From IMG/VR virus record IMGVR_UViG_2690316131_000008: DNA of 16,062 nucleotides. One strand, written 5' to 3'. Below the pieces are notes generated by a model that ran no database searches, was not told the DNA's origin, and saw only the letters and a program-made list of their open reading frames with translations. The translations under genes were made by a program, and so were the position numbers. This stretch comes from a virus (lineage: Duplodnaviria > Heunggongvirae > Uroviricota > Caudoviricetes). Positions 7,825 to 16,062 of this stretch are shown piece after piece. How positions within the stretch are numbered: position 1 is the stretch's first letter; each line of letters begins with the position of its first letter.

Positions 7825-8451
7825 ATGGAAACGGTTGGTCAGCGTATAAAAGCTCTGAGAAGAGTTACCAGAACGTCCCAGAAAGAATTGGGTAAATTTT
7901 GTGGAGTAAGTGACGTTGCTGTGGGGTACTGGGAGAAAGACATCAATGTCCCTGGTGGGGAAGCACTTTCAAAATTAGCGAAGTTCTTCAATACGTCAAT
8001 AGATTACATTCTTTATGGTGCGGAGTTTGAAGGCAAACTCGTCACAAACATGCGCAGAGTTCCTGTAATCTCGTGGGTTCAGGCTGGGCAGTTTACTGAG
8101 TGCAGGACAGCAGAAGTGTTTAGTGAAGTAGACAAGTGGGTAGATACATCATTAAAGATTGGTGATAACTCATTTGCATTGGAGGTTAAAGGCGACTCCA
8201 TGACTAACCCTAACGGCCTCCCAACAATACCAGAAGGCGCAACAGTGATTGTAGATCCTGATGCAGAACCCCGGCATGGAAAAATAGTCATCGCTAGACT
8301 TGATGGAACAAACGAAGCCACAGTAAAAAAATTAGTTATCGATGGCCCTCAAAAGTTTTTAGTGCCATTAAATCCCCGGTACCCCAACATCCCGATCAAT
8401 GGTAATTGCCTCATCATTGGTGTAGTCAAAGGAGTTCAATACGAACTCTAG
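7825..8451 (+). CDS. CI-like phage repressor (N-terminal HTH, C-terminal S24 LexA-like peptidase)
   Basis: N-terminus QRIKALRRVTRTSQKELGKFCGVSDVAVGYWE is an XRE-type HTH. C-terminus carries GDSM (Ser nucleophile) and VKKL (Lys general base about 40 residues later), as in LexA/lambda CI. Confidence 0.85.
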   Translation: METVGQRIKALRRVTRTSQKELGKFCGVSDVAVGYWEKDINVPGGEALSKLAKFFNTSIDYILYGAEFEGKLVTNMRRVPVISWVQAGQFTECRTAEVFSEVDKWVDTSLKIGDNSFALEVKGDSMTNPNGLPTIPEGATVIVDPDAEPRHGKIVIARLDGTNEATVKKLVIDGPQKFLVPLNPRYPNIPINGNCLIIGVVKGVQYEL

Positions 8452-13997: not shown

Positions 13998-14279
13998 ATG
14001 AACACCTTGTTTTTACTGATGGCTGAATTCAATACCCCAAACATTGAACTCTCAGCAGTTAGCCAAAAGTACTTTGGTATGAGTCCAGCCACGGCAGAAG
14101 CAAAAGCAAACGCTTGTAAGTTGCCCGTTCCAACATATCGCATCGGCACATCACAAAAAGCAAAACGTTGCATCAATATTCAGGATCTTGCGGAATACAT
14201 AGACAAAAGGCGAGAAGAAGGACGTATCGAGTGGGAACAGGTCAGAACAGTCAAACAGAAGGGCAAAGAAAATCACTAA
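13998..14279 (+). CDS. PrtN-family excisionase-like protein (putative Xis)
   Basis: MNTLFLLMAEFNTPNIELSAVSQKYFGMSPATAEAKANACKLPVPTYRIG...IQDLAEYID resembles PrtN/Xis-type small DNA-binding proteins. ATG at 13998 with GGAG upstream. Last gene of the plus-strand operon. Confidence 0.6.
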   Translation: MNTLFLLMAEFNTPNIELSAVSQKYFGMSPATAEAKANACKLPVPTYRIGTSQKAKRCINIQDLAEYIDKRREEGRIEWEQVRTVKQKGKENH

Positions 14280-14281
14280 AG

Positions 14282-14307
14282 AAAAAACCCGCCTGAAGGC
14301 GGGTTTT
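14282..14307. terminator. Bidirectional Rho-independent terminator between convergent operons
   Basis: A6-cccgcc-tgaa-ggcggg-T4: a 6-bp GC stem with tetraloop, flanked by an A-run on one side and a T-run on the other, so it can terminate both the plus-strand xis transcript and the minus-strand Panacea operon. Confidence 0.65.
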
Positions 14308-14326
14308 CAAAAAGCACCAGCTATGA

Positions 14327-14500
14327 TCATGCTGCTTTGAGACGACGAAGCTTACCCTGCTGCTCTTTACCAGAGACAGTAGCGTGAGTGAACGCATTAG
14401 GAGCAGCCTTCATCAGAACTTCAACAGCAGCACCCATACCTACGAATGCTTTCATTGTGTCGAACTTAACCTGTGGCTTGGTTGCTTTTTGATCTTCCAT
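14327..14500 (-). CDS. Small hypothetical protein (57 aa), possible third gene of the Panacea operon
   Basis: Not in the ORF track (under 60 aa). By hand: MEDQKATKPQVKFDTMKAFVGMGAAVEVLMKAAPNAFTHATVSGKEQQGKLRRLKAA. ATG at 14500 with GGAG ~6 nt upstream, 40 nt after the 139-aa gene stop, ending just before the terminator. Confidence 0.35.
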   Translation of the reverse strand: MEDQKATKPQVKFDTMKAFVGMGAAVEVLMKAAPNAFTHATVSGKEQQGKLRRLKAA

Positions 14501-14539
14501 AGAAAACTCCAGAAGTTATACCGAAACAATTCCTGTTGT

Positions 14540-14959
14540 TTACTCATCATCAATAGATGATACGCAATATTTATTTTTAAATTTAAGGTTCTTTGGCGTA
14601 ACTTCATCAGAGATATCAAAACCGTCCAGAATTCTATTGAATGTAGCTTCTGGCATATCATCATGAACAGAAATCTCACCCGATCGCTGCTTTCTAACCA
14701 TGTTATCCACTCGCCAAATTATAGCTTCAGCGTAAACAACATAACTTGGATGCTTGATAAAGCGATGATCACCAGAATTCAAGACGCAAGACGGATCGTG
14801 GGGGACACCATCCTTGATACTAGAAATATTAACAACTAAAACACAATAACAATCGTTAACGGGGTAATAAACAGGATCATTACAAATCACATGAAGATGA
14901 TTGCATGGTCCAGTTGGGGCAAGCACAGTTCCTTTCCTGTATGGCTGATAATCCGTCAT
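14540..14959 (-). CDS. Hypothetical protein; candidate toxin/effector partner of the Panacea-domain protein
   Basis: 139 aa, AT-rich, Cys/His-rich (CNHLHVICNDP...CYCVL...HDPSCVL). Start codon overlaps the stop of the upstream Panacea gene (ATGA at 14956-14959). No recognisable domain by eye. Confidence 0.55.
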   Translation of the reverse strand: MTDYQPYRKGTVLAPTGPCNHLHVICNDPVYYPVNDCYCVLVVNISSIKDGVPHDPSCVLNSGDHRFIKHPSYVVYAEAIIWRVDNMVRKQRSGEISVHDDMPEATFNRILDGFDISDEVTPKNLKFKNKYCVSSIDDE

Positions 14960-15528
14960 GATAATTGCAAAGAAAATTCCTTAAGTTTCTGAGATTCTTC
15001 CATTTTGCCAATTATGCGATTAGCCTCATCCTCGCTTTTACCCTCACTGATCAGCATTTCTTTCAGGTCTATAGGCTTACGAGAATTGCCAGGATCGTGC
15101 CACTCTGGACAAACGCTTTCTAAATGCGTCATATTTGCGAGATCAAATCGGTTCATATGCCCATACCGAGAATAGATTTCATCTAAAATCCGGATATCTG
15201 CACGACTCAATTCATCAAAGACCTCGTCTGCATCCATTTCCCTCGGATCTGAACGCAACGATACATTATGCCCGTTCGTCTCTATCAAGTTGTACCAGTA
15301 GTCACCAATGCCTTCAGCCTTACCGCGAATCAAGTTCAGCGTATTCGACATGACTGGTCCAAATTTCATAGAGTAAAGGCTATCTTCGCCGATCATCCTG
15401 CCATGCTTCAAAATCGACTGGCGGTTAGACAGATAGAGCAGCTTCATCAATTTCAGATATGCCATGCGCCCACCTCTCTTAAGAAGTAGGTATGCAGCCA
15501 TTTGAGCTACTTTTTCTTCGCAAAACAT
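14956..15528 (-). CDS. Panacea-domain (DUF4065) protein, PanA/SocA-like putative antitoxin
   Basis: MAYLKLMKLLYLSNRQSILKHGRMIGEDSLYSMKFGPV... parallels the Panacea core (MKLQKLLYFA ... W.YGPV) of SocA/PanA antitoxins. AT-rich; GAGG ~8 nt upstream of the ATG at 15528. Confidence 0.65.
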   Translation of the reverse strand: MFCEEKVAQMAAYLLLKRGGRMAYLKLMKLLYLSNRQSILKHGRMIGEDSLYSMKFGPVMSNTLNLIRGKAEGIGDYWYNLIETNGHNVSLRSDPREMDADEVFDELSRADIRILDEIYSRYGHMNRFDLANMTHLESVCPEWHDPGNSRKPIDLKEMLISEGKSEDEANRIIGKMEESQKLKEFSLQLS

Positions 15529-16062
15529 ATAAGAAACCTCAAAGATAGTGAACTTTATAATTATTCTCGATACTTCATGGGTTGCTTCATCACCAACATG
15601 AGCTTCTTATGGTGTGCCCACTTGGGCCTAAGCAACCAGTTACCTCGTTTGTCAAGTTTATAGCTGGCTTTAACCATGGTCAATTGAAGTGATGAGCAAA
15701 TGATGCTTTCTAAGAATAACAGGTTCCCAATAGGCTCCCACAAAGTGTATAACTACTTGTTTTTCAAAAACGGTACATCCTATCGAGCATTGGTGCAACG
15801 CTAAACCGACCACTCCAGTGAACGTCAGTTTTTTCAGGCATTGCGCTGGTTTGGTTGATTTTTTGCATTTCAGAATTACCGTGCATTTTCAAATGTAGAG
15901 ATTATTTTATCGATATATCAGGTAATGCTGCCAACTTACTGATTTAGTGTATGATGGTGATTTTAAGGTGCTTGCGTGGCTTCCATTTCCATCAGATGTC
16001 CTTCCTGCTCCGCTACTGAAGGCGTGGTGCGTAACGGCAAAAGCACTGCCGGACATCAGCGC

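Follow-up and report, generated by a model that had tools for sequence, protein, structure and literature searches.

Identification of a predicted PanAT toxin-antitoxin pair of toxin cluster T6 at the dusA end of a lambdoid prophage

A cassette of three genes has been analysed in a stretch of phage DNA of 16,062 nucleotides (IMG/VR record IMGVR_UViG_2690316131_000008, Caudoviricetes), the whole of which is referred to here as the window; it comes from a lambdoid prophage, of which it covers the early region. The cassette occupies positions 14,327 to 15,528 on the minus strand. Its first two genes, panA and panT, encode a protein with a Panacea domain and a protein of 139 residues with a predicted MazF-type fold. 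They are interpreted as a predicted type II toxin-antitoxin (TA) pair of the PanAT class, comprising a PanA antitoxin and a toxin of cluster T6, and we consider this reading to be probable, at about 0.8.

Organisation of the cassette

The features of the cassette and of its immediate surroundings are as follows.

15782..15886, minus strand: 5' fragment of dusA, 35 codons, at the attachment-site end of the prophage and in the same orientation as panAT
15655..15683, minus strand: candidate sigma-70-like promoter, TTGACC-17-TAAACT, about 125 nt 5' of panA, weak evidence from a consensus scan
14956..15528, minus strand: panA, 190 residues, stand-alone Panacea-domain antitoxin (Pfam PF13274; phrog_1281; 'Panacea domain-containing protein' in RefSeq)
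14956..14959, minus strand: ATGA overlap of the panA stop with the panT start, read directly from the sequence
14540..14959, minus strand: panT, 139 residues, MazF-fold toxin candidate of PanT cluster T6
14327..14500, minus strand: open reading frame (ORF) of 57 residues, 39 nt 3' of panT, with GGAG 7 nt before its ATG (phrog_2741, E=1e-34)
14283..14308, minus strand: intrinsic terminator, a strong hairpin whose 11-bp stem has 6 GC pairs and which a run of T follows on the minus strand; it stands back to back with the 3' end of xis
13971/13998..14279, plus strand: xis, PrtN-type excisionase (Pfam PF11112; phrog_1300 'excisionase')

The three ORFs described in an earlier, sequence-only reading of this DNA are all present on the minus strand at the positions listed above, and so is the coupling it proposed, in which the stop codon of panA overlaps the start of the 139-residue ORF. 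The AT-richness that it ascribed to the cassette is likewise seen in the composition, which is 39-44% GC, whereas the phage genes to the left of the cassette have 47-50%. A terminator shared by the three genes and xis had been described as bidirectional. The hairpin is indeed found at the shared end; the label is generous, since the plus-strand side, after xis, has just four T. The terminator scan predicts none before the 57-residue ORF, and the terminator at 14283-14308 is common to this ORF and the pair, with which it is possibly co-transcribed. Only short, unconvincing inverted repeats are seen as operator-like sequences 5' of panA, and the Rfam and tRNA scans find no RNA genes in the window.

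The Panacea protein and its predicted MazF-fold partner

The Panacea domain previously suggested for the 190-residue protein has been confirmed by a match to SocA_Panacea (PF13274) with an E-value of 2.2e-19 and 70.9 bits (cut-off 25.7), in which residues 27-137 are aligned with positions 1-109 of the 113 in the profile. No further Pfam domain, DNA-binding or other, is found in PanA. The protein is conserved along its full length with the PanA genes located 5' of homologous toxins. This includes the N-terminus MFCEEKVAQMAAY, which is kept in other taxa and follows the pattern MFxEEKVAQMAAY, and a charged C-terminal tail of about 50 residues. The same Pfam domain occurs in the antitoxin of SocAB, a type VI TA system of Caulobacter crescentus whose SocA is the founding Panacea protein. 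The window pair differs from SocAB in the following respects: the NCBIfam SocA equivalog (NF047745) gives 14.4 bits against a cut-off of 190, so that the window protein is not a SocA orthologue; its partner is not SocB-like; and direct binding has been shown for PanAT pairs, while SocA serves as an adaptor for ClpXP.

The ATG at 14959 is taken as the right start of the partner because its homologues keep residues 1-11, among them P6, K9, G10 and T11. The RefSeq/PGAP call is a protein of 128 residues from a GTG at 14926 (WP_014640052.1), by which the ATGA coupling is broken; many RefSeq records begin the protein there, which probably leaves it too short.

Searches of Pfam, NCBIfam and PADLOC with the 139-residue and the 57-residue protein have produced nothing meaningful, the matches to ICMT and DapC being far below the cut-offs, and a sequence search of the PDB with the family profile gives chance matches only (E>0.3). 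When 72 diverse members of the toxin family are scanned against Pfam no family is assigned, and PemK_toxin reaches just E=0.11 in one of them. Among phage protein groupings the protein belongs to the unnamed family phrog_19071 and to no other. A structural model, in contrast to these sequence searches, points to a known fold. The AlphaFold model, obtained with 55 homologues, is of high confidence, with a pLDDT of 89.7 and a pTM of 0.83; the best 48 Foldseek hits in the PDB are all MazF structures, with a probability of about 1 and TM scores of 0.44-0.61. As Foldseek returns MazF structures as its best hits, the protein is predicted to be a barrel of the MazF/Kid/CcdB type, with the SH3-like barrel of MazF present in the model and followed by two C-terminal helices.

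The sequence-only reading had considered the partner to be unrecognisable and a candidate new toxin. This has to be given up, as the partner has the predicted fold described above and falls in a published cluster of PanT toxins. Kurata et al. (2022, PNAS; PMC8832971) have surveyed Panacea neighbourhoods and numbered the clusters of partner toxins. The protein WP_101821906.1 of Chimaeribacter coloradensis 2016-Iso4 aligns with 93% of the window toxin at 57% identity, and in the rows of Dataset S1 considered here it is entered as 'pT6 T6' together with PanA WP_101821908.1, in antitoxin-toxin order (PMC8832971). A second anchor, recovered independently, is the homologue from Pantoea septica LMG 5345 (56% identity), which the same rows also enter as T6; the two E. 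coli entries in these rows are T1 and T3, with none of T6 (PMC8832971).

The validated T6 pair is that of Pseudomonas moraviensis LMG 24280 (PanA WP_083354365.1, PanT WP_083201923.1). Its toxin arrests the growth of E. coli, an effect that the cognate PanA neutralises, and the two proteins co-purify; the toxin blocks protein synthesis specifically and is assigned to EndoA/PemK/MazF by HHpred (PMC8832971). The window pair shares with it the gene order, with a stand-alone Panacea antitoxin 5' and a toxin of about 135 residues 3', an overlap of -1 to -4 bases, and a toxin that has no CDD or Pfam match and a MazF/PemK-like fold. The restored N-terminus of the P. moraviensis PanA, MIFSEQKVAQ, resembles MFCEEKVAQ of the window protein. 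The two differ in their setting, the validated pair being classed as 'NotPhage' and the window copy being carried by a dusA-integrating lambdoid prophage of E. coli/Shigella.

The family is large and its association with Panacea is constant in the loci considered. Among 1.84 billion cluster representatives (50% identity) searched by profile, 2677 are members with E<=0.001, and the stricter E<=1e-10 leaves 910. A cluster look-up for ten distant representatives gives unnamed metagenomic proteins only. A PanA-type gene is located directly upstream on the same strand in 36 of the 36 testable loci, which comprise all 6 sampled loci and all 30 testable species-representative genomes; two more are cut by contig ends. 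The two genes either overlap by 4 bases or stand a few bases apart. The flanking genes vary among loci, and the window pair shows the architecture by which Kurata et al. recognise a TA module, namely a partner within 100 nt, conservation in two species or more, and no sign that the two genes belong to a longer conserved operon. The pair is kept together in several proteobacterial classes and in a metagenome-assembled genome (MAG) of Bdellovibrionales, and is inherited as a unit across Proteobacteria in prophages, genomic islands and chromosomes. The earlier proposal of a TA-like module, with a Panacea gene translationally coupled to a small partner, is therefore retained.

Conservation has been computed over 292 distinct members of the toxin family. 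H21 is present in all aligned sequences, followed by S/T47, C58 (otherwise Val), H65 and Y76 at 99%, D55 (otherwise Glu) and F67 at 98%, G113 at 97%, L22 and S72 (otherwise Thr) at 96%, S117 at 95%, G63 at 93% and S/T46 at 92%. All the family-conserved residues are intact in the window toxin. The richness in Cys and His that had been pointed out before is real: CNHLHVIC, CYCVL and HDPSC are found, and Cys and His account for 6 residues each out of 139. A structural zinc site or a Cys-His-Asp triad was considered as a possible explanation and not adopted; only H21, C58 and H65 of the twelve are family-wide and C58 is Val in a few members, and C19, C37, C39, H54, H99 and C132 are not conserved.

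The families nearest in fold are MazF, Kid (PemK) and EndoA (Pfam PF02452), which are likewise small and likewise the toxins of two-gene modules. MazF blocks translation, as does the validated T6 homologue. The window toxin differs from them in having no significant sequence or profile similarity to the MazF family, in being about 25 residues longer with its two C-terminal helices, and in its partner, a Panacea protein instead of an antitoxin of the MazE/Kis/PemI type. The catalytic residues of E. coli MazF are Arg R29 and Thr T52. The residues conserved in the window toxin family are instead His21, Asp55, Cys58 and His65, and both hhalign alignments, colinear and of low confidence, place H21-L22 against H28-R29 of MazF and S46-S47 against T52-T53, so that Leu22 occupies the position equivalent to Arg29. 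If the low-confidence alignment holds, the catalytic Arg of MazF is absent and a His/Asp/His chemistry is probable.

These residues, so unlike the MazF set, together with the apparent lack of the MazF Arg and of any sequence-level likeness to PemK/MazF, could also be read as signs that the protein acts like CcdB, on gyrase or another non-RNA target, or is a non-nuclease enzyme using the conserved His, Asp and Cys. We regard this as improbable. The CcdB structure scores below both MazF and Kid against the model, and none of the best 48 Foldseek hits is other than MazF; CcdB, a gyrase poison, has a different type of antitoxin; and the validated T6 homologue inhibits translation specifically and not replication. 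A catalytic Cys is disfavoured because C58 is Val in a few members.

Several observations weigh against the assignment of the cassette to a T6 PanAT pair with a MazF-like toxin. The window protein has no match to PemK_toxin (PF02452) at E<=1. The hhalign comparison of the toxin family with MazF gives a probability of only 0.4-0.5%, whether with E. coli MazF alone or with a five-sequence set of MazF/ChpBK/Kid/EndoA, in which E. coli MazF is the one sequence checked against the PDB. The residue correspondences with MazF, coming from this low-confidence alignment, are a hint only. The link from the window toxin to the validated P. moraviensis toxin, which is not among the named hits, consists of the clustering by its authors and the two anchor sequences. 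Eight of the predicted toxins in the PanAT study were non-toxic in E. coli and some of the toxic ones were not neutralised (PMC8832971); membership of the family is therefore no guarantee of activity. None of the three cassette proteins has a match in PADLOC-DB v2 at E<=1, a check that the sequence-only reading had itself put forward. Promoter-like sites around panA do not exceed those in shuffled sequence, and the site at 15683..15655 is no better than chance. As the similarity to MazF at the profile level is insignificant, the suggestion of an RNase rests on the predicted fold and on the translation phenotype of the homologue.

Prophage setting and the cargo slot

The early region of the prophage contains the following repressor.

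7825-8451: repressor with S24 and helix-turn-helix (HTH) domains

The plus-strand genes to its right encode RdgC, a YfdR-like nucleotidase, a DUF551 protein, a 3'-5' exonuclease and the excisionase, and the minus-strand genes to its left encode a CII-like protein, Dam, RusA, a KilA-N protein and a DUF968 protein. The view that the cassette is cargo at the integration-proximal end of the prophage is in agreement with the dusA fragment (15886..15782) that adjoins it at the prophage end. Because this truncated dusA adjoins the cassette, the prophage is considered to sit in the 5' end of dusA, with the cassette as its final piece of cargo ahead of the attachment site. The region of the cassette matches E. 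coli MSB1_9I at 100% identity, and RefSeq annotates there a Panacea-domain protein and two hypothetical proteins, followed by an incomplete tRNA-dihydrouridine synthase, yjbM-like genes, zur and lexA. Of the 5426 complete E. coli genomes, 4380 match the part with the dusA fragment.

The integrase gene of the free phage Lys8385Vzw (98.4% identity) begins about 450 bp beyond panA, and in this phage a 98%-identical 5' segment of dusA is seen next to attP. The presence of this segment in a free phage fits the behaviour of elements that target dusA and supply a new 5' end for it, and suggests transcription of the cargo from the dusA promoter after integration. No terminator has been predicted in the scan between the dusA fragment and panAT (15529-15781). 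Given this result and the shared orientation of the two, transcription from the dusA promoter might extend into panAT.

The left end of an IS1-family element is also observed at 15921-16062 on the plus strand, 35 bp 5' of the start codon of the dusA fragment. It begins with GGTAATGCTGCCAACTTACTG, contains an InsA-like reading frame from 15975 and shows about 94% identity with the IS1 elements of E. coli; the exact IS1 junction occurs in no complete E. coli genome of the collection. By this insertion the dusA fragment and panAT may have been separated from the dusA promoter of the host. A toxin fragment of 100% identity is named from Shigella flexneri, and with the lack of the junction in E. 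coli this makes a Shigella origin of the window possible.

Among the 5426 complete E. coli genomes, 550 have the backbone made up of xis and the 57-residue gene. The pair is found in 206 (about 4%), always on the chromosome and including O103, O121 and O157 strains, which leaves about 340 of the 550 backbone genomes without it. From these counts the slot has at least two alleles. A hypothetical protein of 177 residues (WP_000956557.1), with no Pfam or PADLOC match, replaces the pair in three inspected loci, those of mEp460, O157:H7 MB41-1 and strain AH02. This protein is an alternative cargo of the slot and may be a defence candidate. Its gene lies in the slot that corresponds to 14540-15528 of the window, at the following positions.

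L019 3727-4260, minus strand: 177-residue alternative cargo
L011 2948-3481, minus strand: the same cargo in mEp460 (gp23)

The 57-residue ORF had been hinted at as a third component of the module, and a three-gene system with this protein as a functional partner would be in line with its position 39 nt downstream on the same strand, its own GGAG ribosome-binding site and the shared terminator. These features hold good; membership in the module is not supported. The gene is absent 3' of the pair in all the sampled loci outside E. coli, and it stays beside xis in mEp460, O157:H7 and other prophages in which a different gene replaces the pair. Since it is kept without the pair and is missing at other loci of the pair, it is regarded as a gene of the phage backbone, and a three-gene system has been rejected on synteny as highly improbable. 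Among deposited phage genomes the phrog_2741 protein is restricted to this group of E. coli phages. Pfam, NCBIfam and PADLOC return nothing meaningful for it.

The 57-residue protein (MEDQKATKPQVKFDTMKAFVGMGAAVEVLMKAAPNAF...) is itself very common, being present on more than 1000 contigs from E. coli, Shigella and E. albertii, and its gene always adjoins this excisionase and is convergent with it. The label 'phage tail protein' given to it in some sources is not supported by its position or size.

Homologous pairs occupy diverse locations. The six sampled loci come from Shewanella, where the pair is on an integrative island; Vibrio, where it is in a prophage adjoining an S24 repressor; the Bdellovibrionales MAG, where it lies among housekeeping genes; Pantoea; a metagenome contig; and a phage-like element of E. 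coli. In IMG/VR 143 viral contigs carry relatives, and many of the prophage predictions stop at the pair.

In lambdoid prophages of Pantoea (L005-L008, 3435-4405) the pair is situated between the gene of a cI-type repressor and that of the N antiterminator, which is the position of rexAB in lambda; some of these copies have an ORF of 32 residues, YoaK-like, just 5' of the pair. The homologous pair in the E. coli phage-like element (52% identity; L016/L018, 1-2311) is directly 3' of the gene of a polyvalent protein of 2791 residues with LPD5/LPD1/MuF_C/LPD38 domains.

Possible role of the pair in lysogens

Taking the cassette as a T6 PanAT pair, PanA would bind the 139-residue toxin directly and hold it inactive in the lysogen. 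The freed toxin would block translation, most likely by cutting RNA as the MazF-fold toxins do, with a chemistry that is probably unlike that of MazF in view of the invariant His21, Asp55 and His65, the Ser/Thr at 46-47 and the Leu22 at the MazF Arg position. Expression might come from the weak promoter of the pair itself and from dusA-promoter read-through. The role would most likely be a benefit to the lysogen, as abortive-infection defence against other phages, by stabilisation of the prophage or by both, and Panacea is possibly the sensing part.

In a dedicated abortive-infection system, the Panacea domain would sense a product or process of the infecting phage, the toxin would be released, translation would stop and the infection would be aborted, which is compatible with the TA mechanism. 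The location of the pair in variable cargo slots of temperate phages argues for this, beside attP and int in E. coli, between cI and N in Pantoea and at the S24 repressor in Vibrio, as do its alternation with another gene in the same E. coli slot and its relatives on viral contigs. The authors of NetFlax have hypothesised that Panacea is a sensor, and other TA families, such as the toxSAS CapRel, defend against phages. A defence role is thus plausible from the temperate-phage positions and the sensor idea. The lack of a PADLOC match for either protein of the pair counts against it; no phage-challenge test of the window pair or of any T6 pair has been found in the literature that was searched; and some members have ordinary chromosomal surroundings that are free of genes from mobile elements. 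On balance abortive infection is put forward as a tentative possibility. A fuller version, in which T6 PanT is a MazF-fold nuclease that has exchanged the Arg/Thr chemistry of MazF for a His-Asp-His site akin to the two-histidine chemistry of RNase A, and the module is a Panacea-sensing abortive-infection system driven by the dusA promoter only after integration, is speculative and rather unlikely as a whole.

The other role to be considered is addiction, in which loss or excision of the element would remove the labile antitoxin and the stable toxin would arrest the cell, with no part in defence. Type II TA pairs carried by mobile elements classically behave in this way. The place of the pair at the very end of the element, by the attachment site, and its occurrence on other elements, among them integrative islands and a large phage-like one, would suit such a role. 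Stabilisation is of little use to an inducible phage, however, because excision normally ends in lysis, and the many E. coli genomes that keep the same backbone without the pair also count against it, as does the neutralisation by direct binding reported for PanAT (PMC8832971). Stabilisation as the sole role is considered doubtful.

With the cassette read as a T6 PanAT pair, the window toxin is, as judged from its sequence relationships, a member of a published class with a predicted activity and not a new family. A false lead has thereby been removed, the supposedly unrecognisable partner being a catalogued type of toxin with one validated member. The T6 family, with its 2677 clusters, is large and linked to Panacea in every locus examined, and has no model in Pfam, NCBIfam or PADLOC. 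The interest that remains is in the chemistry and the trigger of a large family without a curated model. The E. coli/Shigella copy provides a convenient native-host system in which to ask whether lysogens are defended by PanAT and what it is that Panacea senses.

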